Assembly: GCA_049691175.1 (NCBI GenBank) | Contig: JBAVNP010000015.1 | Coordinates: 1-58,468 of the forward strand | Direction: 5' to 3' | DNA length: 58,468 nt | Source of the DNA: Sedimentisphaerales bacterium | GTDB taxonomy: Bacteria; Planctomycetota; Phycisphaerae; Sedimentisphaerales; UBA12454 | Part shown: in pieces, positions 3,724 through 16,897 of the stretch | Position numbering within the stretch: position 1 is the stretch's first letter | Layout: each line of letters begins with the position of its first letter | Program-made: the position numbers and the translations under genes | Notes under the pieces: generated by a model | The model's database searches: none | The model's input: the letters and a program-made list of their open reading frames with translations, nothing else | What the model was told of the DNA's origin: nothing

Positions 3724-4422
3724 TTAAGTTTTTTTCAAGCCGCTCGGTTCCTGCAGTCCGATTTTCTTGCCGGATTTCTGAAAATCAATGATTGCCTGTG
3801 CGGCTTTCTGCGGGTCATCGCAAACTGTAAAAACATTCATATCGCCAGGCTCAATGAACCTGTGTTCGGCCAGCATATCTTTTTTCATCCATTCGATCAG
3901 TCCCGCCCAGTAATCGCTGCCCATAAGAACTACAGGAAAATACGCCTGTTTGAATGTCTGAATCAGGACAAGGGCTTCAGTGAACTCATCCATTGTGCCG
4001 AATCCGCCGGGGAAAACGATAAAGCCGTTGGCGTATTTCAGGAACATCACCTTTCGGCAGAAAAAGTATCTGAAATGCAGCGAAAGATTCTGATCTTTGT
4101 TCGGCATCTGTTCGTGCGGCAGTTCGATATTCAGACCGATGCTTTTACCGCCGACCTGTGCCGCGCCCTTATTTGCCGCTTCCATTATTCCGCTGCCGCC
4201 GCCGGTAATAATCGCAAAGCCTGCCTTTGCTAAAATCGCCGCCGTTTCTTCCGCAAGTTTGTAATATTTGTTATCCGATTTTATTCGTGCCGAGCCGAAA
4301 AACGAAACAGCCGGCCCGATTGTCGCAAGCTCCTCAAAACCTTCGACGAATTCCGCCATTATCCTGAATACCCGCCAGGTTTCTTCCGTCGCCACGCCAA
4401 ATCTCGCTATTTTTTCGCTCAT
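3724..4422 (-). CDS. LOG family / TIGR00730 Rossmann-fold nucleotide-binding protein
   Basis: GGGSGIMEA and PGGFGTMDEF motifs. Start trimmed to the ATG at 4422 (MSEKIARFG), preceded by GGAAAGG. The longer ORF to 4461 runs into a repeat element. Confidence 0.82.
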   Translation of the reverse strand: MSEKIARFGVATEETWRVFRIMAEFVEGFEELATIGPAVSFFGSARIKSDNKYYKLAEETAAILAKAGFAIITGGGSGIMEAANKGAAQVGGKSIGLNIELPHEQMPNKDQNLSLHFRYFFCRKVMFLKYANGFIVFPGGFGTMDEFTEALVLIQTFKQAYFPVVLMGSDYWAGLIEWMKKDMLAEHRFIEPGDMNVFTVCDDPQKAAQAIIDFQKSGKKIGLQEPSGLKKT

Positions 4423-5204: not shown

Positions 5205-6979
5205 TATTCTGATGCGTTCTTAAGACCCTGCAAATTTTTTAATAGCTCATTTTTTATCAGGTTGCCGGCCAGTTTGACCGGAGTATTACTGCCCGGCAGA
5301 AGCAAAACAGTTACCGGCACGGCAGGCTCGCTATAAATTTCTTTCAGCGCTTTTGCCGCAGGGTAATCATAGCCTGTTGTATCCGCTTTTACCGCAAGCA
5401 CGCCTTTTTGTTTTATCAAATCAGCAATTTTCCTGCTCGAATATACCGTTTTATCGAGAATCTTGCACGAAAAACACCAGTCAGCAGTGAACTTAATAAG
5501 CACCGGCTGATTAGCTTCTTGTGCCGACTTGATTAACTGTGCATCATAATCCTGCCAGTTGATAAGTCCTTTTTTCGGCTCAGTTAGAAATATAAAACCG
5601 AATATAACCGCCAGGGCAATTGCCGCTAATCTTATCAGCCATTTTTTTGCTTTGGGAGTATTATACCCAACCCAAACCCCCCACATCCAAACGCAGACCG
5701 CAAGCACAATCGCATAATAGAGAATATCTATAATTTTTTCCGGCTGCACTGCCTCGAGCAGTTTTACGCCTATCGCCAGCAGGATAAAACCGGTGGCGTG
5801 TTTGAAAAGCTCCATCCATCTGCCCGGCTTTGGTATTTTTTCAAGAAGACCGGGAATTGCGGTCAATATTATATATGGCAGAGCCATTCCAGCGCCTATC
5901 AGAAGAATTGTTATCGTCGCAAGCGGTATCGGCTGAGTCTGCGCCCAGGCAAGAACAAAAGTGAGAATCGCAAAACTGCACGGCGTGCTGAGAACCGCCG
6001 CCAAAAATCCCATTCCGACAGAACCTGCAAAACCTCCGCTTTGTTTTTTTGCGCCGCCAATTGACGCAGGTATGCCGAATGTAAATAATCCGAACATATA
6101 TAACGCCAGCACTACCATCAGCAATGCCATTCCGATGACAAAGCCGGTATTTCTGAACTGGTCGCCCCACTGAAAGATTATCCCGAATCCGAGTTTGAGA
6201 ATTATACTGACTGCGGCAAGAGCGGCAAAAAATAAAACGATACCCAAGGCAAACGCAAGGCCCAGAGTTATACTTTTTGCCTTGTTTTGTTTTGCCTGCG
6301 AGATGAGTCGCATCACGATAATCGGCAGGATAGGCCAGACGCACGGCATTACGTTCAATAATAGCCCCGCCACCACCGCCAAAAGTAAAATATGTAGTTG
6401 TTTAGCCCCCACTTTTAGTGGGGGTTCGTCATTCTCAACAAGGCGGGAACCCCTGGTCACATTTATTGCAAACGCCGGCTTATCCATCTTCGCGGATTTT
6501 GAAATGTCGAGTTTCCTTGAAAGTTCATAAGATGCCTTTCTGCACAATTGCTCCGAGCAGGAAAGACCGTCTATTGCAACTTTTATTTCGGTGCTTTGTG
6601 CATTTGCTTCTGTTTTAAAAGGAATAAAAACGCTGAAAGCCCCGCTATAAACGGTGAGCTTTTGATTTGTAACCTTATCAAAATATAATTGCCCCTTTGG
6701 GAAAACAGGCTCGGAAAAGATAAGTCCTTTGCTCGCCGGCGTTAATTTCAGGTTCATTCGCTGAGGCGCCGTGTTTGCATCCGCGTAGAAATGCCAGTCT
6801 TTTTCGAGATTGAATTTTATCTGGATTGCGCTGTTCGCTTCCGGCAGAACTGTTTCGTGTTGAAAGATAAGTTCTATCTGTGCAAAATCATCCCTGATTT
6901 TCTCATTCGCAAAAGCGACTGAAAAAAACAGATTTACCGCCGCACAAATTGCTAATAGTAAAAGATACCTTCTGCGCAT
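5204..6979 (-). CDS. dsbD: thiol:disulfide interchange protein DsbD-like (N-terminal periplasmic domain, cytochrome c biogenesis TM core, C-terminal thioredoxin)
   Basis: Signal peptide, multi-TM core with MPCVWPILP, and a C-terminal thioredoxin CxxC (WCFSCK). The stop overlaps the nth start by 1 nt (TAATG). Confidence 0.85.
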   Translation of the reverse strand: MRRRYLLLLAICAAVNLFFSVAFANEKIRDDFAQIELIFQHETVLPEANSAIQIKFNLEKDWHFYADANTAPQRMNLKLTPASKGLIFSEPVFPKGQLYFDKVTNQKLTVYSGAFSVFIPFKTEANAQSTEIKVAIDGLSCSEQLCRKASYELSRKLDISKSAKMDKPAFAINVTRGSRLVENDEPPLKVGAKQLHILLLAVVAGLLLNVMPCVWPILPIIVMRLISQAKQNKAKSITLGLAFALGIVLFFAALAAVSIILKLGFGIIFQWGDQFRNTGFVIGMALLMVVLALYMFGLFTFGIPASIGGAKKQSGGFAGSVGMGFLAAVLSTPCSFAILTFVLAWAQTQPIPLATITILLIGAGMALPYIILTAIPGLLEKIPKPGRWMELFKHATGFILLAIGVKLLEAVQPEKIIDILYYAIVLAVCVWMWGVWVGYNTPKAKKWLIRLAAIALAVIFGFIFLTEPKKGLINWQDYDAQLIKSAQEANQPVLIKFTADWCFSCKILDKTVYSSRKIADLIKQKGVLAVKADTTGYDYPAAKALKEIYSEPAVPVTVLLLPGSNTPVKLAGNLIKNELLKNLQGLKNASE

Positions 6980-8972: not shown

Positions 8973-9482
8973 CTACCACCCCGTTTGCATCTGTTCGACT
9001 ATTCTCTCGGCAAGTTTATTTATGGCGGTCTTTGAGGCATAATTAAAACCCTGCTGCTGAAACTCCGAATAACTTGCTGTCGCACTTGCTTCCTTGTTTT
9101 CAAGCAGATATTCACCGGTTTTAAGATTCTTCCAGCTGAAATTGGCGCTAATCTCGGCCTGGTCCTCCAGTGCCCTGCCCGTTTCACGTTCAATTGTCAG
9201 CGGCGAACTGCCTATCCCCGTTATTTTACCGCTCAATACCGTATCAGCCCTGCTTCTGTCTGAAACTATCTTATAAGGCGTTTCAGCTTCTATCCTTTTT
9301 GCTACCGCATCGGTAAGGTCATACTCAAGGTCTCTGGTGAACGTTGCATTGTCGAACATTTCAACATAAACGCTTTTTATATCCTGCGAATACAAAGATT
9401 TACTGCTGTAACCGCCGCATCCCGCAAAGAATAAAGCCGCCCAGGACACAAAGATAAATATAAAAAATTTCGAATTTGTCAT
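8973..9482 (-). CDS. LptE-like LPS-assembly lipoprotein
   Basis: Lipobox (FFAGC) followed by an LptE-like sequence pattern. Operonic between the TPR protein and ftsH. The family call is tentative. Confidence 0.5.
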   Translation of the reverse strand: MTNSKFFIFIFVSWAALFFAGCGGYSSKSLYSQDIKSVYVEMFDNATFTRDLEYDLTDAVAKRIEAETPYKIVSDRSRADTVLSGKITGIGSSPLTIERETGRALEDQAEISANFSWKNLKTGEYLLENKEASATASYSEFQQQGFNYASKTAINKLAERIVEQMQTGW

Positions 9483-10483
9483 AGAAAGAGCGCTCTCCAG
9501 TTAAATTTCTTCTTTTTTAACATGCTTTGCGCAAGCAGTTTTTCCTGCTCTTTTTTCATAACGGGTATTTTTTGTTCGGCGGATTTTGCCGCAACGCTGC
9601 TCGGCCAGACCTCGGTTATTCTCTGGTAATAAAGATTCGCAGCGTTATAACTGCCCGTCCTGGCGTAATAATCCGCGACAGTCATCTCCTTTTCCGCAAG
9701 CTTTTCGTCTATCACGCCCAGCTTTTGCGGTATTTGAAGTTCAGCCGCCTTATCCTCATATCTTTTCTGATACTCAGAATAGTAGCTTCTCGAGCTTTCG
9801 AGCACCTTTCCATCAAATTTCGGCCCCCTGTAATCCTTTTCAAGGGTCCGCGCCATTCCGAGCAGTGCATCCTGCCCGACTGGCCCTGTCGGCCATCTGT
9901 TCGACATATCCGACCATACCAGATACGAATCGTAATAAGCGCCTCTTTTCTCGTCGGATTGAGCCAGAGTCTGGAGCGCATTTTTCGCTATCGGGGCATC
10001 GCCCGCCTTGTCCGCGATTTTGTTCATTATCGCCCCGCCTTCATCGTAAGCGGTGATTGAGATTACCCCCAAAGCTCTTTTTTTCTGTCCGCCAAGAAAC
10101 GCAGTGCCAATCTGATACTGCCTCTCGAGCGCTGACAGATAAAATGCGCTTTGCGGAAAGTCATCTGTGAATTTGTCATAAGCCTCCGACGCCTTCTCAT
10201 ACTTTCGCTGACTATACAATAATTCCGCTTTAACAAACGCGTCAAAATCGGCGCCGGCTAATTGAGGATAATCCTTCTTCAGCTTCGCAAAGGCATTTTT
10301 AGCCTTACCTGTCTTGCCGGTAGAAACAAACTGCTTTGCGTCTGAAACGGCCAACATATAACCGGAGTCTTTTTCCTGTCCGACCGGCTGCCATTCCTGA
10401 CCATCTTTCAAGTGCCATGTTTGCTTCGCGGCAAAGACCATCGAACCGAGAATAACAAGTAAAATAAGCCCTTTTGTTCGCAT
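9479..10483 (-). CDS. secreted TPR-repeat protein, BamD/YfiO-like
   Basis: Signal peptide starting at MRTKGLILLVILGSMVFA (ATG at 10483), followed by TPR-like repeats. There is a 4-nt overlap with the downstream lipoprotein gene. Confidence 0.55.
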   Translation of the reverse strand: MRTKGLILLVILGSMVFAAKQTWHLKDGQEWQPVGQEKDSGYMLAVSDAKQFVSTGKTGKAKNAFAKLKKDYPQLAGADFDAFVKAELLYSQRKYEKASEAYDKFTDDFPQSAFYLSALERQYQIGTAFLGGQKKRALGVISITAYDEGGAIMNKIADKAGDAPIAKNALQTLAQSDEKRGAYYDSYLVWSDMSNRWPTGPVGQDALLGMARTLEKDYRGPKFDGKVLESSRSYYSEYQKRYEDKAAELQIPQKLGVIDEKLAEKEMTVADYYARTGSYNAANLYYQRITEVWPSSVAAKSAEQKIPVMKKEQEKLLAQSMLKKKKFNWRALFL

Positions 10484-10751
10484 AACTTTATCCCCGCACC
10501 AATTACCAGTCCCTTGTTTCGATAAAGACTTCGTGTCCATATTTCTTACTCCAATAAACTCATCCCCCACCCCTATCCATCGGCGCGGGGGTCAAGCCGA
10601 CATTATATATAAACCGCTGCGGCCTTGCAAACCTATTCAAAATACGGTATCAGCGGATTCAGCCATACCTTACGGCAAAACAGCCTCCCCTTTCCTAACC
10701 CTCTATTTGTTAGATATTTGCAAAATATTATATAAAATTTATAAAAAATAG

Positions 10752-10849: not shown

Positions 10850-11149
10850 ATGAAAACGACAGATTTTAAAAAAGAGGAGACAGAATCGCTAAGAAAGCAG
10901 AAAATAGCCCGCAGAATCGCGAAAATGCCAAAAAAATACCGCAAAATCTATAGAAAAGCGGTTGAAAACAATAACAAAGACGCGGCTATTCAGGCCTTCT
11001 GCCTCGAATGTGTCTGCTGGCAAAAAAATGAGATTACCAACTGCCCCTGCTCAGCCTGTCCCCTATACGGCTTGAGACCCTACACAAAAGGAACTGATAA
11101 TGAACAAAAGAAAAATGCCGCGGCAAGAAAACAGCTATCGCACGTTTGA
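10850..11149 (+). CDS. small Cys-rich protein (phage/mobile-element style), function unknown
   Basis: 99 aa: basic N-terminus, then CLECVCWQ...NCPCSACPLYGLRPY. Lies next to an HNH endonuclease. Confidence 0.55.
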   Translation: MKTTDFKKEETESLRKQKIARRIAKMPKKYRKIYRKAVENNNKDAAIQAFCLECVCWQKNEITNCPCSACPLYGLRPYTKGTDNEQKKNAAARKQLSHV

Positions 11150-11858
11150 AATCCGCGGCCAAACAATAATCATTGATGATTTCATTTATCGCAGGCTTTT
11201 CAAAGACCCTGATATACTGCCCCGCAGAAAATATACCTTTATACAAGGTTTCCATTTTTCTGGCGGTTACCCGACAATGATTTTGAAAACTGACGACAAA
11301 TCGATTTCTCTTTCTCGGTATATAATGCACGCGGTAAAGGGAGATTTTGTTGACCACAAAAACAGAAACAGGCTGGATAACCGCCGGCGTAATTTGCGGC
11401 TTGTAAACGCAAGACAAAACAATCTTAACCGCAAAATTAAAAATAACACCGGCCTGATAGGCGTTTCAAAAGGCAGGGATAGAAAGCATTTTTGTGTCAG
11501 AACGGATTTTATAACTAAGCAGGGGCACAGAATAGGTTTTCATTGTCCCGATACTCCATTTAACAGAATTTTGACGGCACTAGCGCACGATAAATTTGTA
11601 TTGCAGCAAGGCGAAGAGGAATACGCGCCGCTGAATTTCCCCTGCTTCAAGTTCGAGCCGTCCAGGAGCATTTTGATGAAGGAGGACCTGAATAAATATA
11701 AAGAAAAAAAATCAAAAGCCTGCCCTGAGCGACCTGTGGTGAGCAAACCCGTCCTGAGTAAAACCGAAGGGGCCGAACCAAGCCGAAGGGTTAAAACTAA
11801 AAACTCAAAACTAAATAAAAGAATATTGCGTTTCTGCCGGAAAATGACCCTCATATAA
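11100..11858 (+). CDS. HNH homing-type endonuclease with AP2-like DNA-binding domain
   Basis: VDHKNRNRLDNRRRNLRLVNARQNN (HNH_3 style), followed by an AP2-like segment (GVSKGRDRKHFCVRTDF...). The C-terminal ~50 aa are encoded by repeat sequence. Overlaps the previous ORF by 50 nt. Confidence 0.78.
   Translation: MNKRKMPRQENSYRTFEIRGQTIIIDDFIYRRLFKDPDILPRRKYTFIQGFHFSGGYPTMILKTDDKSISLSRYIMHAVKGDFVDHKNRNRLDNRRRNLRLVNARQNNLNRKIKNNTGLIGVSKGRDRKHFCVRTDFITKQGHRIGFHCPDTPFNRILTALAHDKFVLQQGEEEYAPLNFPCFKFEPSRSILMKEDLNKYKEKKSKACPERPVVSKPVLSKTEGAEPSRRVKTKNSKLNKRILRFCRKMTLI
11718..11789 (+). repeat. GC-rich dispersed repeat, family A (long form), inside the HNH gene 3' end
   Basis: GCCTGCCCTGAGCGACCTGTGGTGAGC...CGAACCAAGCCGAAGG. 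The reverse complement of the 48-nt copy in truA (28479-28526) matches both ends. Confidence 0.7.
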
Positions 11859-11977: not shown

Positions 11978-13051
11978 TCAGAATGGTAAGTCTTCATATG
12001 ATTCTGATTCATTTTTAAAATAATCATTAGATGGTTTTTTGAAATCTTCTGTTAGCATAAGCGATGCTGCTGAAGCAGGTATACGTCCTACTCCTTTTAA
12101 TGTTTTTGCTAATTCCTGCCCTTCTCTACTAAATTTAGCAAGAGTTTTAGATAAAGAATCTATACCCTGAATGTTTAGTGCTAATCGTAATACGGTACCA
12201 GAAAAATTGGTCTTGTATAATTTTTTTGTTTTTCCTACTAATAATATCCCTGCATCTCCGCTGCAAATAAAAAAACTTCCACTATTTCGGCACAATCTGC
12301 TTGTCATATATAAACCAAATCCAGCATTTTGCCAATAATCATTAGGTTGAACCTTTTTGCCTTTGTACATTTTTCCGGAAATTCCAGGCAAAAGGCTATT
12401 ATGTATTGCTTCCTTATCTGAAACAATATCCTTTAAAAAAGGATTTTCTGATAAACTTCGCCTAATGCCTATGCCTGTATCCAATATTGAAACTTCAACT
12501 AGGTTTTGACTTGGCCAATATTGAGCACAGTAGTTTATATGACCAGAAGAACTATGCTCAACAACATTTCGTATAATTTCACAAAAAGAATATTTCAAAG
12601 TATCCACCAAATTACCACTGGGTAGTCTAGTCAGAACACACGCAAGTCGATGAGAACGCCGTTCAATTGTTTCACCAATATGTTCCCAGTTTTGATTAGC
12701 ACCATTTTTAAGACTATCAACTTTTACAGAAGTAATTGGTATATAATTCAAACTACCTTTAGCTTCTCCTTGTTGCTTCCCAAAATTTAATCCGAAAGTT
12801 TTAAAAAAACCCATATGTCCTGCATAGTCGAAGTGTTCATGATTAATAGCGTAAAATGTAGATAAGGATTTGCTTTGTCTAAATTTGCTGATTTGAGAAG
12901 ACAGATAAAGCATCCCGAAAGGCTCCACCCAGTCCATATTTGAAAAATCGAAAACATATTCCTCTGAATCTGGCAATTGAAATAATTCATTTGAAAAATT
13001 AATAGCATTATCTAAGGTAAGTAATGGTACCCTTACAACTACACTAGTCAC
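11978..13051 (-). CDS. STAS-like N-terminal domain fused to a GHKL (histidine-kinase-like) ATPase domain; acidic ...YEDLPF C-terminus
   Basis: Bergerat-fold motifs: N-box (EIIRNVVEHS), G1 (LDTGIGI), G2 (AGFGLY). The N-terminus (FDFSNMDWVEPFGMLYLSSQI) resembles STAS/anti-sigma-antagonist-like modules. No HisKA or receiver domain seen. Confidence 0.7.
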   Translation of the reverse strand: MTSVVVRVPLLTLDNAINFSNELFQLPDSEEYVFDFSNMDWVEPFGMLYLSSQISKFRQSKSLSTFYAINHEHFDYAGHMGFFKTFGLNFGKQQGEAKGSLNYIPITSVKVDSLKNGANQNWEHIGETIERRSHRLACVLTRLPSGNLVDTLKYSFCEIIRNVVEHSSSGHINYCAQYWPSQNLVEVSILDTGIGIRRSLSENPFLKDIVSDKEAIHNSLLPGISGKMYKGKKVQPNDYWQNAGFGLYMTSRLCRNSGSFFICSGDAGILLVGKTKKLYKTNFSGTVLRLALNIQGIDSLSKTLAKFSREGQELAKTLKGVGRIPASAASLMLTEDFKKPSNDYFKNESESYEDLPF

Positions 13052-13067
13052 CTTTTATGCTCCGATT

Positions 13068-13382
13068 TTAATTTGTCGTATACTCTTTCCAGGGTATGGC
13101 ATTAAGTGGCACGTTCACCAAAAATTTAACAATATCTGGACGCCCACTATAAGTTGGAATGCCCCTAGAATCTTGTGCCATAAGAATTATAGGAATACCC
13201 GGAAATAACGGCTGAAAGGAATTTATCGCCTCTCTTGTGCTTATACTATTGTCAACAACATATTTTTTAACAATTATAATTGCAAAAGTTACCCCCTGTT
13301 CCCTAATAACAGCACCTTGAAATTTCACTTCTGGTTTCCTTATATTGTTTTTCTTTGCATTGAAAAAATTCCGTTGTTGCAC
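13068..13382 (-). CDS. small hypothetical protein (86-104 aa), first gene of a pair with the GHKL ATPase
   Basis: ORF ends 16 nt upstream of the GHKL gene. The track start is the GTG at 13382. An alternative GTG at 13328 has a better-spaced AGGAAA. Alternating beta/alpha-like pattern; no family recognised. Confidence 0.55.
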   Translation of the reverse strand: MQQRNFFNAKKNNIRKPEVKFQGAVIREQGVTFAIIIVKKYVVDNSISTREAINSFQPLFPGIPIILMAQDSRGIPTYSGRPDIVKFLVNVPLNAIPWKEYTTN

Positions 13383-13398
13383 CTCATGCGACTAGGAA

Positions 13399-13426
13399 AT
13401 TATACATTAAATAAAAGAGAGGGCAA
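13399..13426 (-). promoter_or_regulatory. sigma-70-like promoter (TTGCCC-16 nt-TATAAT) for the small-ORF/GHKL pair
   Basis: On the minus strand, -35 = 13426-13421 and -10 = 13404-13399. Lies in the 75-nt gap between the 261-aa and 104-aa ORFs. Confidence 0.4.
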
Positions 13427-13457: not shown

Positions 13458-14243
13458 TTAGTTTTTTTGAGGATAAAAGACACCCAAGACCATAAAGGTA
13501 GTGCGAAATCTTTTCAGATTGCCAACATAAAAATAAACATCTTTTTTCGCCGTGTTAGCAATATCAAGCCAGCGTTGTTTAATTTTTTCCAAAAGAACTT
13601 TATCGGTTGGATATTTTGATCGCCAATCTCTATAAGCCTGGCCGATTTCCCAATCGATAATGGATAGTTTATGGCCGGGACAATTGTCCTCGCCGAAACA
13701 TTTGAATTTATAATAAAAACTAAAAGGAATTTCTTCAATTGGATCCTTCTTTTTATTTTTATCAAAGAAACTCAATTGAGCATAGCAGACCTCTCTTGCC
13801 TGCTGGTCGGATAAACTCTGTTTTGCGCATTCAAAAGAAATATCAGCAGGTTTTATAAGCCCCAGAGAAAGATCGCTGCTGGGCTCAGCATCTTTATAGA
13901 CCTGACACATTGATTTTACAGGAACTTTTAAAACAATAGATTTGCGTCTTTCCCATGTGCCTTTGTCCGTATCAAGCTGGTCTATAATTTTTATAGTATC
14001 TACATTTACATGAAAGCTTTCCGGCCTCTTGTCATCGGATGGGATAGAGCAGTCAACTTCGATAATGCTGTATTTTTTAAACTGTTGTCCTTCGTCGAGG
14101 TCGCGGTACGGAATGGGATAAAGACGGACTAATTGTGAATTGCTTAAATCAACCCCGGCACAACATACAGTTTCGCTATATTTCCTACTGGGATTTGGGT
14201 AGGCTTTTACGGTTACAAGTATTTTCTTTTTCTCGAACTTCAC
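13458..14243 (-). CDS. hypothetical protein, 261 aa, partner of DUF488
   Basis: Long ORF 6 nt downstream of the DUF488 gene. Notable motifs: VKAYPNPSRKYSETVCCAG and CFGEDNCPGHKLSIIDWEIG. No domain recognised by eye. Confidence 0.7.
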   Translation of the reverse strand: MKFEKKKILVTVKAYPNPSRKYSETVCCAGVDLSNSQLVRLYPIPYRDLDEGQQFKKYSIIEVDCSIPSDDKRPESFHVNVDTIKIIDQLDTDKGTWERRKSIVLKVPVKSMCQVYKDAEPSSDLSLGLIKPADISFECAKQSLSDQQAREVCYAQLSFFDKNKKKDPIEEIPFSFYYKFKCFGEDNCPGHKLSIIDWEIGQAYRDWRSKYPTDKVLLEKIKQRWLDIANTAKKDVYFYVGNLKRFRTTFMVLGVFYPQKN

Positions 14244-14249
14244 TGAATT

Positions 14250-14693
14250 TTAAATATGTATTATTTTTAAGCCGTTTCCATCATACTCTTTTATTTTATC
14301 AGCCACTATTGATCGATGGCATTTTTCCGGAAATCGTTCAAAACACATAATGCAGGTTACCCCATCGAAGAGGTACTGATACACTTTTTTCACGGCATCC
14401 ATATTCTTTGATAAATACGCTGAATAAGCCTTGAAAAAATACTCATAATCCCAGTCAGATTTTAACTTATTGCGTATTGCGGCAGGACTTCCGAGGGGTT
14501 TTTCATGAATATATTCGATATTCTCATCTTTAAGTCTTTGTCCCAAGGTTGATTTCGAGAAGCCTTTTTTTCTTGAAAGGGGAATTTCTCTGACATCAAT
14601 AAGATGTGTGACGTTAAAACTTTTTAGACGAAGAACAAACTCGTCTATTTCCCTTCCTTCGTATCCTATAGTTAATAATTCATATTGTTTCAT
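14250..14693 (-). CDS. DUF488 domain protein
   Basis: LLTIGYEGREIDEFV...LIDVREIPLSRKKGFSK..L...L....IEYIH...LGSP matches the DUF488 pattern. Confidence 0.85.
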   Translation of the reverse strand: MKQYELLTIGYEGREIDEFVLRLKSFNVTHLIDVREIPLSRKKGFSKSTLGQRLKDENIEYIHEKPLGSPAAIRNKLKSDWDYEYFFKAYSAYLSKNMDAVKKVYQYLFDGVTCIMCFERFPEKCHRSIVADKIKEYDGNGLKIIHI

Positions 14694-14837: not shown

Positions 14838-15080
14838 TTATCCAATGATTAGCAGGGCCATCCAGGGGACGAAATTGAAGACCAGGACAAAAATCTTCAT
14901 TGCTCCAAGGAACGAGTAGAAGAGGATATTGAACGCTTCTTTGGAAAGTTTGAACCATTTGCTGTGCATCCGGTAGACAAAATCGCCGGCGAAGACCCAC
15001 ATAGCAAACGCAGCAAGCAGCAATGCCCCGTTCAAAATCGTGCACCACATAAAAAACGCTCTGACGGCTGTGATATCCAT
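14838..15080 (-). CDS. 80-aa integral membrane protein (paralog of 57378..57620)
   Basis: MDITAVRAFFMWCTI... with two or three hydrophobic segments. AAGGAGATTTATT-ATG RBS is shared with the paralog. Confidence 0.7.
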   Translation of the reverse strand: MDITAVRAFFMWCTILNGALLLAAFAMWVFAGDFVYRMHSKWFKLSKEAFNILFYSFLGAMKIFVLVFNFVPWMALLIIG

Positions 15081-15128
15081 AATAAATCTCCTTATTTTTT
15101 ATTCTGCCGAATTACAGCTTAAATTGCT

Positions 15129-15446
15129 CTAATGTATGCCAAGGTCGTTTATCTGTTTTGTCACCTGATGATACATCTGTCCCATAAGCTGACAAAGCCA
15201 GACAGTAACTCCGATAACAACAACGGTGATGACAATCTTGGTAATCAATTTGTATTTCGGGTTTGCCCAGACCAGCGGCAGCGCAAGCGGCCCCAGAGCA
15301 GCCAGGCCGACCACAATCGCCGATGTGGAATAATACCACTTTGTTTTCGGCTTTGGCCTGTAAGAGTCATCGAGAAACTCGCCGCAAAAACGGCACTTTA
15401 TCGCCTCTTCCTGAATTTCCTCAGCACAAAAACGGCATTTCTTCAT
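15129..15446 (-). CDS. zinc-ribbon domain membrane protein
   Basis: N-terminal CRFCAEEIQEEAIKCRFCGEFLD followed by two TM segments. The same zinc-ribbon head is found on 35824..36516. Confidence 0.7.
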   Translation of the reverse strand: MKKCRFCAEEIQEEAIKCRFCGEFLDDSYRPKPKTKWYYSTSAIVVGLAALGPLALPLVWANPKYKLITKIVITVVVIGVTVWLCQLMGQMYHQVTKQINDLGIH

Positions 15447-15637: not shown

Positions 15638-16897
15638 TTACTCTTTTTTAGACTCACCTGTATCTTTCGAAGCGGGCTTGTTTGTATCTGAACTCGGCGG
15701 ATTCTCAGTTGCTTTTCGGCTCGGGGTAGGTTTTGTGCCGGGGATTTCGGTTTCGAGCTTATCTGCCGCCTCGTTGGTATATTTTATATCGGCTCCAGTC
15801 CTGATTTTCTGGATGTAATCCATCATAACCTGCTCTCTTTGCTTGTCGGCAAGAGTCTGCTTAATCTCATCTTTGGACTTTTCGAAACTTACTGTGCCGG
15901 CATCTATATGCTCGATGAGCTTTATAATATGGAAGCCGAAGCTGGTCTCTACAACATCGCTAATCTGGCCCGGCTTTAGAGCATAGGCAGCTTTTTCAAA
16001 CTCCGGCACAAGATTGCCTTTAGCCTGGATTCCGAGGTCGCCGCCCTGCTTGCTGGAAGGACAGGCTGAGTATTGTTTCGCGAGGTCGTTAAAATCGGCG
16101 CCGGCTTTCAGCTTCTTGAGAAGACCTTCGGCTTTCGCCTTTGCTTCTGCTTTGGCCTTGTTGGGGTCATTGGCGTCCTGTGCAGGGGCTATAAGTATAT
16201 GCTTGGCGTGAATCGACTCAGGCTTGTTGAACTGCTGTATATTTTCGTCATAGTATGCCTTGATCTGCTGGTCGGTGGGCGGCTGCATTTTGTCGGCGAA
16301 TTTGGTGTCCATCAGCTTTTCAAACATAAGTTTCTTGGTCATATTCTTCTGATATTCGCCGAAGGTTGTGCCGTAGGCTTTCAGCAGCGCTTTAAATTCA
16401 TCGAGAGTTAAATTCTGCGATGCAATCTGCTTGTTGATTTGCTGGTCCAGTTCGGCCTGATTAACATCGATATTATTTTTCTTCTCATCCTCCGTGATAA
16501 GCTGTTCGATTACAAGCTGTTCGATAATGCGTTTTCTTATCTGCTGACGATATTGCGGCACCATATTTTCAGGAACTCTGCCAGCCATTTGCTGCATACG
16601 CGGATTTAGAATGTCCTCGATTTGCCCTTCGGTGATGGATGTCCCGTTGACAGTTACTATAACATTCGCATCTTTTGCCTCGACGCCTTCGGCAGGGCTG
16701 AGGGCAGGCCCATTCGGCAAGCTCAGGGCAGGGGCGGCGGTCGACTCACTGACAGGAGCCTTCGGTTCTTCGACGGGTTTATTCGCTTCCGCCACAGCAT
16801 TTTTCGATTCCGCAGCAGGTTTTTTCGGCTTTGCTGCAAATGCCGCTGTCGATAACAAAATAACCAAAACAAGTGAAATACTTACGATAGTTTTCAT
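15638..16897 (-). CDS. periplasmic peptidyl-prolyl isomerase, SurA/PrsA (parvulin) family
   Basis: Signal peptide, SurA-like N-terminal chaperone region, parvulin motifs (HAKHILI, FGFHIIKL). Low-complexity N- and C-terminal extensions. Confidence 0.85.
   Translation of the reverse strand: MKTIVSISLVLVILLSTAAFAAKPKKPAAESKNAVAEANKPVEEPKAPVSESTAAPALSLPNGPALSPAEGVEAKDANVIVTVNGTSITEGQIEDILNPRMQQMAGRVPENMVPQYRQQIRKRIIEQLVIEQLITEDEKKNNIDVNQAELDQQINKQIASQNLTLDEFKALLKAYGTTFGEYQKNMTKKLMFEKLMDTKFADKMQPPTDQQIKAYYDENIQQFNKPESIHAKHILIAPAQDANDPNKAKAEAKAKAEGLLKKLKAGADFNDLAKQYSACPSSKQGGDLGIQAKGNLVPEFEKAAYALKPGQISDVVETSFGFHIIKLIEHIDAGTVSFEKSKDEIKQTLADKQREQVMMDYIQKIRTGADIKYTNEAADKLETEIPGTKPTPSRKATENPPSSDTNKPASKDTGESKKE

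Follow-up and report, generated by a model that had tools for sequence, protein, structure and literature searches.

The contig JBAVNP010000015.1 of a Sedimentisphaerales bacterium (GenBank assembly GCA_049691175.1), analysed here over 58,468 nucleotides (nt) and referred to as the window, carries two adjacent minus-strand genes within an AT-rich accessory island. The larger gene (11978..13051, NCBI WCE45_00305) encodes a 357-amino-acid (aa) protein of the VapK/CapK-homologous type, in which a STAS-like domain precedes a GHKL ATP-binding domain. The smaller gene (13068..13328, NCBI WCE45_00310) encodes 86 aa and lies directly upstream. A sequence-only reading of this stretch had described them as a two-gene module with its own promoter, in which a fused STAS-like/GHKL protein ends like the C-terminal tip of single-stranded DNA-binding protein (SSB), and had proposed that they form a sensor/effector pair in phage or DNA conflict.

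Inspection of the open reading frames (ORFs) showed that both are real and separated by 16 nt. The small ORF can also be read as 104 aa (13068..13382, minus strand, from GTG 13382). The 86-aa product starting at GTG 13328 is the most likely one, because the sequence AAGGAA stands a few bases ahead of this start codon, the NCBI annotation agrees, and nearly all of the 540 homologues are 85-86 aa long and begin with MKFQG. The island has a GC content of 0.34-0.38 at positions 12-15 kb, whereas most of the window lies at roughly 0.42-0.50 (about 0.45), and is bounded by a SurA-like peptidyl-prolyl isomerase gene (15638-16897) and the BamD/YfiO and LptE genes (8973-10570); a search for a flanking tRNA gene found none. 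Upstream of the small gene, a promoter-like TTGCCC-16-TATAAT sequence is present at 13399..13426 (minus strand), but such sites occur in this AT-rich stretch at the frequency expected by chance (12 versus 11.9 from shuffles). It is therefore a possible promoter of the pair to which the statistics lend no weight, and the claim of a dedicated promoter was not supported.

Domain architecture and kinase homology of the large protein

Searches of Pfam with the 357-aa protein returned HATPase_c and HATPase_c_2 below threshold (1.4e-3 and 5e-3), and NCBIfam and sequence searches of the PDB assigned it to no family; within PHROGs it matches phrog_3364 (3e-28). The segments highlighted by the sequence-only reading (EIIRNVVEHS, LDTGIGI, AGFGLY, FDFSNMDWVEPFGMLYLSSQI and the terminal ESESYEDLPF) are all present in the translation. 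In an AlphaFold2 model (predicted local distance difference test, pLDDT, 83; predicted template modelling score, pTM, 0.84), residues ~1-110 (12722..13051, minus strand, as are all parts of this gene) are predicted to form a STAS-like domain of beta-alpha-beta-alpha-beta order, a region that, from residue 26-28 onwards, also aligns with VapK by hhalign. The GHKL (Bergerat) ATP-binding domain, assigned from Foldseek matches and sequence motifs, spans residues ~125-295 (12167..12679). It is followed by a helical region at residues ~296-335 (12047..12166), with modelled helices at 300-318 and 326-335, that is kept across the family as ASxMLxRDF. Residues 336-357 (11981..12046) form a predicted disordered acidic tail ending in ESESYEDLPF, with pLDDT below 50 for residues 347-357.

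The best Foldseek match of the model was TopoVI-B (2hkj, 2e-4), followed by SpoIIAB (1l0o_A, 9e-4, template modelling (TM) score on the target 0.68), with further matches to GyrB/ParE and the P4 domain of CheA. Together with the motifs, these matches make us confident that the protein is correctly modelled with a Bergerat fold, as the sequence-only reading had held, and the suggested check for a SpoIIAB-type relative came out positive. Weaker, lower-ranked matches included SLC26A7 and Mglu entries, which we take to contain STAS domains. Characteristic GHKL landmarks are the N box (E158/N162), G1 (D191xGxG195) and G2 (G244xG246), and the long ATP lid bears an invariant PGxS(225)GK. Across a family alignment of 248 members, N162, H166, D191, G193, G195, G244 and G246 are each conserved in 248/248 and E158 in 247/248, while the lid residue S225 is Ser or Thr in all 248. 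Because the residues of the N box, G1 and G2 are essentially invariant, the ATP site appears to be live.

VapK (STAS-GHKL) and CapK (HTH-STAS-GHKL, where HTH denotes a helix-turn-helix domain) are both Ser kinases; in response to DNA damage they activate anti-phage toxin-antitoxin systems and immune operons (Chambers et al., EMBO J 2026, PMC13373217). Activation by single-stranded DNA (ssDNA) of about 20 nt was shown for CapK and proposed for VapK, and an aromatic residue of the STAS domain is required for function in each case: W68 of CapK for ssDNA-stimulated kinase activity and F54 of VapK for phage protection (PMC13373217). Their substrates contain a STAS domain, these being the repressor CapS (STAS followed by a winged HTH, wHTH) and VapS, the antitoxin of the PIN toxin VapC, and every reported capK and vapK locus has such a substrate gene adjacent to it (PMC13373217).

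Using the VapK, VapS, CapK and CapS sequences from the supplementary files of that study (PMC13373217), we compared the 248-member alignment with each kinase by hhalign. VapK was matched with a probability of 97.7% (E-value 2e-12) over 236 collinear columns running from query residues 26-287 to VapK residues 40-285, and thus across both the STAS-like and the kinase domains. The match to CapK (95.3%, 2e-8) comprised 119 columns over the linker, N box and G1. With an alignment of 25 sequences the probabilities were 92% for VapK and 75% for CapK. In the alignment with VapK, FDFSNMDWVEPF falls over FIFTHCRFLRPN, which places W41 of the window protein and its clade on VapK F54. By profile comparison, therefore, the 357-aa protein is a distant VapK/CapK relative with the same STAS plus GHKL architecture, and the collinear match over both domains bears out the description of an RsbV-like part fused to an RsbW-like (SpoIIAB-type) part.

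Close to W41, P44 is conserved in 248/248 members and E43 in 176/248 (71%). The E43-P44 pair falls at the position of the phospho-Ser48-Pro of VapS, in a register taken from a non-significant hhalign stretch and manual reading; comparison of the N-terminal domain with VapS alone was likewise not significant by hhalign (probability 0.7-6.9%).

The family to which the large protein belongs is extensive. A word-index search returned 915 homologues, mostly 'hypothetical proteins' of 336-340 aa with about 50% identity, and an exhaustive profile search found 3,504 clusters (at 50% identity) with E<=1e-3, including 631 with E<=1e-30. A genome scan yielded 152 relatives, and the neighbourhoods of 80 loci were taken from Proteobacteria, Campylobacterota, Cyanobacteria, Chloroflexota, Bacteroidota, Bacillota and others. 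Clustering of the genes around these 80 loci found no conserved neighbour, the largest neighbour cluster covering 6 loci, and 17 loci had both flanks free of same-strand genes for 200 nt. Defence genes found immediately upstream included PDC-S06, a type III restriction endonuclease, GajB, SduA, DrmB, an Avs4-like gene, PbeA and HipA, with Pfam matches to ResIII, SduA_C and HipA among the upstream neighbours; the PADLOC DrmA model PDLC02567 matches residues 72-226 at the corresponding profile positions. Housekeeping genes (GyrB, UvrB and NusB) also occur immediately upstream. One family member was found in a Coprococcus phage (38% identity), a 6.8-kb Acinetobacter plasmid carries another as its chief cargo, beside BrnTA, and a more distant relative occupies the accessory region of a Streptococcus prophage, beside paratox. 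Because the neighbours are not conserved, solo loci are common, defence genes recur nearby, and phages and plasmids carry members, we conclude that the family travels as a single-gene resident of mobile elements and defence islands.

Neither a sigma factor nor a STAS antagonist was present among the Pfam-tabulated upstream neighbours, and no constant one was found in the 80 loci. In the window itself the pair is surrounded by genes for DUF488, DuOB-like and HNH proteins. The absence of a sigma-factor context and the defence-island or mobile-element setting noted by the sequence-only reading are thus confirmed by the neighbour and PADLOC analyses.

Two variants of the architecture were observed along the way. 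In Streptococcus phage Javan39 (locus L171, 2935-4124), a GHKL relative with 24% identity lies between lysin and paratox and overlaps a 99-aa downstream ORF, with which it may form a different kinase-partner pair. Family member P0243 (699 aa) has an uncharacterised N-terminal fusion of 360 aa.

The SSB-like tail

The C-terminal tip of bacterial SSB consists of acidic residues followed by I/L-P-F, as in the DDDIPF of E. coli. Most members of the large-protein family end at MLxRDFxx, and only the four closest homologues have an extension of ~20 residues, in which the tips are conserved as (D/E)(D/L)(I/L)(P/S)F (EDLPF, DDIPF, DDLSF and DDIPF) and the linkers are variable. EDLPF belongs to the window protein, and DDIPF to P0002 and P0004; members P0005-7 of the same clade lack the tail. 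Similar tips occur elsewhere in the family (P0250 DDDLPF, P0287 EDLPF, P0340 DEEIPF, P0321 DDIPL, P0245 EYPF), giving 9/248 members in at least 6 lineages, the query clade included, at 34-49% core identity. The nearest relatives of the other tip-bearing lineages have no tip. Against a background of 4/1941 non-family ORFs (>=150 aa, from all fetched DNA), this is roughly a 20-fold enrichment by a crude control. The resemblance to SSB that had been pointed out from the window protein is thus conserved in its nearest clade and recurs independently in the family.

Other C-terminal additions were also found. A PcrA_UvrD_tudor domain ends P0282 (28.7 bits, above the Pfam cut-off) and, more weakly, P0289, and other long members have plain acidic C-terminal ends. 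Where their roles are known, SSB-type tips and Tudor modules serve to bind SSB partners or RNA polymerase. Since tips recur in separate lineages and Tudor domains or acidic tails occur in other members, the sequences point to repeated recruitment by this family of C-terminal modules that bind nucleic-acid-machinery hubs. Such recurrence would fit an ssDNA-related function.

A Tudor-like C-terminal domain of the PcrA/UvrD type, roughly 55 aa long, can be discerned in long members including P0282, P0289, P0250, P0287 and P0276, and is sometimes followed by an SSB-like tip (DDDLPF in P0250, EDLPF in P0287). In addition, two unrelated ORFs near family loci have SSB-like ends, RDDVPF at L047 (10151-10948, minus strand) and EDVPF at L108 (9165-9878, minus strand), and neither resembles SSB.

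Gene pairing, the 86-aa protein and neighbouring genes

Within the clade P0001-P0007 (53-83% identity), the small gene lies directly upstream of the GHKL gene in 7/7 readable loci, with a gap of 8-21 nt and in at least 5 flanking contexts. These loci are the window, L003 and a Logan contig of P0002, which share SurA...BamD synteny, and L167, L168, L176 and L175. At L167 the pair is accompanied by KARI, a 518-aa protein and a Y1 transposase, at L176 it follows a cupin gene, and at L175 the small gene is partly disrupted. Outside this clade, a hidden Markov model of the small protein found no match within 6 kb of the 80 genome loci, nor beside the nearest outgroup P0009 (0/81). The operon is therefore real but specific to one clade: the proposed two-gene module, and the expectation that the two genes would be conserved as neighbours elsewhere, hold for these seven loci and not for the other 81 loci of the family. 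A 203-aa gene upstream of a Shewanella family member was considered as a long form of the small protein and rejected, as it shows no similarity.

For the small protein, Pfam, NCBIfam and sequence searches of the PDB found nothing, so its description as an unrecognised family stands with respect to Pfam and NCBIfam; it is qualified by PHROGs, which holds the family as phrog_23950 (6.5e-32), and by the 540 homologues. Despite the PHROGs match, tblastn of the small protein against a phage collection returned no match. The homologues have a mean column identity of 75% across Planctomycetota, Halomonas, Nostoc and Rhizobium plasmids, and the AlphaFold2 model has a pLDDT of 94.9. Its fold matches (tRNA-splicing-endonuclease subunits, PD-(D/E)xK-like viral endonucleases and the N-domain of family II pyrophosphatase) had TM scores of 0.3-0.5 and were set aside as too weak to use. 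The possibility that it is a diverged STAS domain of the VapS/CapS kind was also rejected (hhalign probability <1%; no STAS entry in Foldseek searches of the PDB or viral libraries). Conserved hydroxyl residues are T14, T59 (T/S 86%), Y60, Y83 and T84 (T/S 92%), and could, judging from their conservation, be candidate phosphate acceptors.

The small gene has a life of its own. Neighbourhoods taken from 80 metagenomic loci contained a following GHKL gene in 0/80, and among the analysed small-protein loci only the window and L003 have this arrangement. Its successor is a Zn-ribbon protein matching PADLOC PDC-M14A in 10/80 loci and a PD-T7-5-like protein in 3/80; DUF5677 and HD proteins follow it elsewhere, and in some loci it stands alone. 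The small protein is thus an independent family found with differing downstream genes or by itself, and that it is so conserved while its partners change suggests contact with an invariant component, for example a host hub or a nucleic acid. An XRE-HTH gene lies near the small gene in 27 loci, often divergent and with a gene for an HExxH peptidase, an arrangement that, from the sequences, resembles CapH/CapP. On Rhizobium plasmids a DUF2188 gene precedes the small gene, divergent from an AAA ATPase and S8 peptidase pair.

At six loci (L093, L115, L123, L135, L136 and L140, around position 6000), the small gene comes first, opposite a divergent XRE-HTH gene (~140 aa) and HExxH peptidase gene (~340 aa), and is then followed by a PDC-M14A-type Zn-ribbon protein of roughly 320-350 aa, in whose C-terminal half an R-x4-H (HEPN-like) motif can be read from the sequence. 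The DUF2188 and small genes stand beside an IetAS-like AAA/S8 pair at L173 (pRi1724, 3725-4261), L174, L114, L129 and L142, an arrangement that conjugative plasmids of Rhizobium and Agrobacterium share with metagenomic loci.

Upstream of the pair in the window, and on the same strand, lies a candidate PDC-M19 pair (13458..14693, minus strand) made up of a DUF488 protein (14250-14693, 147 aa) and a DuOB-like protein (13458-14243, 261 aa). PADLOC assigned the DUF488 protein to PDC-M19A (6e-38) and the DuOB-like protein to PDC-M19B (3e-64), and Pfam matched DUF488 at 1.4e-27. The DUF488 protein covers only the C-terminal half (148-294) of the 294-position PDC-M19A profile, its usual N-terminal domain being missing, and the two proteins match phrog_14939 and phrog_25907. 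Neither the GHKL nor the small protein matched the PDC-M19A or PDC-M19B models, which only the two upstream genes match. Literature searches on PDC-M19 and on the combination of DUF488 and DuOB found nothing. The PDC-M19 pair is probably a separate system from the pair studied here.

Other genes of the island vary. An HNH_3 endonuclease gene (252 aa) with an overlapping 99-aa ORF (10850-11858, plus strand) converges on the GHKL gene, and HNH_3 genes of other lengths (200 and 116 aa) hold the same position in L003 and the P0002 contig; L003 also has an extra Gp49/HigB-like and HTH gene pair inserted in the interval. On account of the varying HNH_3 lengths and this insertion, the SurA-BamD interval looks like a hotspot for accessory genes. 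Between SurA and DUF488, the window contains a DUF6868 gene (80 aa, 7.6e-26) and a Cys-rich 105-aa ORF (14838-15446, minus strand), both absent from this interval in L003 and the P0002 contig; in an unrelated Planctomycete locus (L004, 9422-9664) a DUF6868 gene directly follows a small-protein pair.

Interpretation and comparison with known systems

Taken together, the results lead us to propose, with a probability of about one half, that the large protein is a stand-alone STAS-like plus GHKL ATP-dependent switch, most likely a Ser/Thr kinase, that belongs to a solo branch homologous to VapK/CapK and responds to ssDNA or DNA damage, with the 86-aa partner and the SSB-like tail as additions of one clade. 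The sequence analysis establishes the homology, the intact active site, the genomic habit, the pairing within one clade and the recurring tail; that ssDNA is the trigger, that the protein is a kinase and not an ATPase, which substrate it has and what its tail does are inferred. By analogy with VapK and CapK, aberrant ssDNA arising from phage replication or DNA damage would bind a groove between the STAS-like and kinase domains, where W41 would correspond to VapK's stacking aromatic residue, and would thereby start the ATP-dependent phosphorylation of a target. The best candidate for a kinase substrate or adaptor in this clade would be the 86-aa protein, though it is not a STAS protein. The tail might dock the kinase onto proteins that bind SSB tips, i.e. 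replication and repair hubs, or it might fold back as an ssDNA mimic and keep the kinase off until real ssDNA displaces it.

Several observations weigh against this proposal. Pfam searches with the N-terminal domain alone (E<=10, 13 members) detected neither STAS nor DUF4325, the two families that the sequence-only reading had named for checking, so the STAS label is indirect, resting on predicted profile homology to VapK and weak fold matches rather than on Pfam. Position 41 is W, F, Y or H in only 132/248 members (about 53%). Unlike at the reported capK and vapK loci, no gene for a STAS-domain substrate adjoins the window gene and none is a conserved neighbour in the 80 genome loci; the small protein, for its part, shows no detectable similarity to VapS/CapS and matches no STAS fold. 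Neither protein has a recognised effector domain, which also leaves the idea of a sensor/effector pair unsupported. The best structural match, TopoVI-B, is an ATPase, and the N-box Glu is conserved. Most of the family lacks both the small gene (0/81 loci) and the tail, and the core function would therefore need neither of them. The tail statistics, finally, come from few sequences and a crude ORF background.

Some of these points would be met by a GHL-type ATPase clamp or switch of the TopoVI-B, MutL or MORC-like kind, acting on DNA or on a partner by ATP-driven dimerisation. The leading position of TopoVI-B in Foldseek, the near-invariant E158, the long conserved ATP lid and the lack of a STAS substrate nearby all speak for such a protein, which we nevertheless regard as rather unlikely, given that the collinear full-length homology is to the kinases VapK and CapK and that the domain is compact, of SpoIIAB size, with no transducer domain; SpoIIAB-type kinases also retain the N-box Glu. 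The likeness to SpoIIAB, which is among the best structural matches, could in turn mean a conventional anti-sigma kinase that works by partner switching in housekeeping stress signalling and whose tail resembles SSB by coincidence. This is the most improbable of the explanations considered, as no sigma-factor or antagonist gene is constant in the 80 loci, the family resides on phages and plasmids, and independent lineages bear the tail at about 20 times the background frequency. CapK homology and the adjacent PDC-M19 genes might also suggest a CapK/CapS-like transcriptional controller of a neighbouring defence operon; it is very unlikely, since there is no HTH or wHTH domain in either protein, the pair lies downstream and not upstream of PDC-M19, and no operon is constant beside it (L167, L168 and L176).

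How many genes act together is a related matter. The four co-directional genes for the DUF488, DuOB-like, small and GHKL proteins could form one system, an extension of PDC-M19 in which the tail docks on the OB folds of the DuOB-like protein. SSB tips do bind OB folds, the four-gene order is found in the window, L003 and the Logan contig of P0002, a further locus (L087) has the DUF488, DuOB and small genes up to the end of its contig, and no terminator-like site separates the DuOB-like gene from the small gene. These loci are, however, the same SurA...BamD syntenic insertion in one lineage and so amount to one observation; moreover, the small and GHKL genes occur without DUF488 and DuOB in L167, L168 and L176, PADLOC defines PDC-M19 by two genes, and the P0005-7 subclade has the pair and no tail. 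A four-gene system is accordingly unlikely. At the other extreme, the small and GHKL genes would be functionally independent cargo that happens to be adjacent in a defence island, and it is true that each family is mostly found without the other, the small gene often being alone, before PDC-M14A-like, PD-T7-5-like, HD or DUF5677 genes, or after DUF2188 on Rhizobium plasmids. This explanation is quite improbable, because chance adjacency would not survive the rearrangement seen across 7/7 loci, with gaps of 8-21 nt and at least 5 contexts.

Building on the preferred reading of a solo VapK/CapK-like kinase, a broader picture can be offered tentatively, and we consider it possible though doubtful as a whole. 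It holds that a widespread branch of CapK/VapK works alone, lacking a STAS substrate, as a sensor in immunity or stress, that this branch repeatedly gained SSB-tip mimics and PcrA/UvrD Tudor domains as autoinhibitory modules or as modules docking onto hubs of replication, repair and transcription, and that one clade signals through a non-STAS 86-aa plug-in common to several unrelated defence effectors. It was only in 2026 that CapK and VapK were presented as kinases to which ssDNA signals danger, and their definition included their STAS substrates. Judging from this locus, they have a far larger sister family (about 3,500 clusters, in many phyla, phages and plasmids) that has no such substrate. 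The recurrent SSB-like tails and Tudor domains give rise to the testable idea of sensors placed at, or gated by, the machinery of DNA metabolism, and the 86-aa protein, which is comparatively well conserved for a small defence-island protein, stands ahead of several different candidate effectors.

Compared with known systems, PDC-M19 is related to the pair by position: it adjoins the pair co-directionally in the window, as it does in two or three relatives with the same synteny, but is by PADLOC's definition a separate two-gene unit, and the pair occurs without it. With SpoIIAB/RsbW the large protein shares the compact Bergerat kinase fold and a STAS-like module, here fused in cis. It differs in that no sigma-factor gene or separate antagonist gene is conserved among the family's neighbours, in the Glu that occupies the putative phospho-acceptor position of the fused STAS-like part in 71% of the family, and in its distribution on mobile elements. 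The tail has in common with the SSB tip a predicted disordered linker, an acidic stretch and a terminal [IL]-P-F (in the window protein, P0002, P0004 and P0250), but it is attached to a kinase-like protein instead of an OB-fold DNA-binding protein.

CapK likewise has a STAS domain ahead of its GHKL kinase and a 'GFF' motif after the STAS sheet, as read from the sequences; the window protein differs from it by having no N-terminal HTH and no downstream capS, and its gene is not upstream of any constant operon. VapK is closer. The window protein has about 25% identity to it over the hhalign-aligned columns, and genes for the STAS antitoxin (vapS) and the PIN toxin (vapC) are missing from its surroundings. 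The window family has an extra conserved linker motif (HMGFF...GEAxGSxxYxP) and extra C-terminal helices and is usually solo; to this the window clade adds an SSB-like tail and, upstream, a non-STAS partner of 86 aa. What the two share is a putative STAS plus GHKL architecture free of HTH, the N-box pattern E-I-x-x-N-x-x-E-H-S together with G1 and G2, and the habit of residing in defence islands; in the window protein and its clade, the aromatic W41 also aligns with F54.

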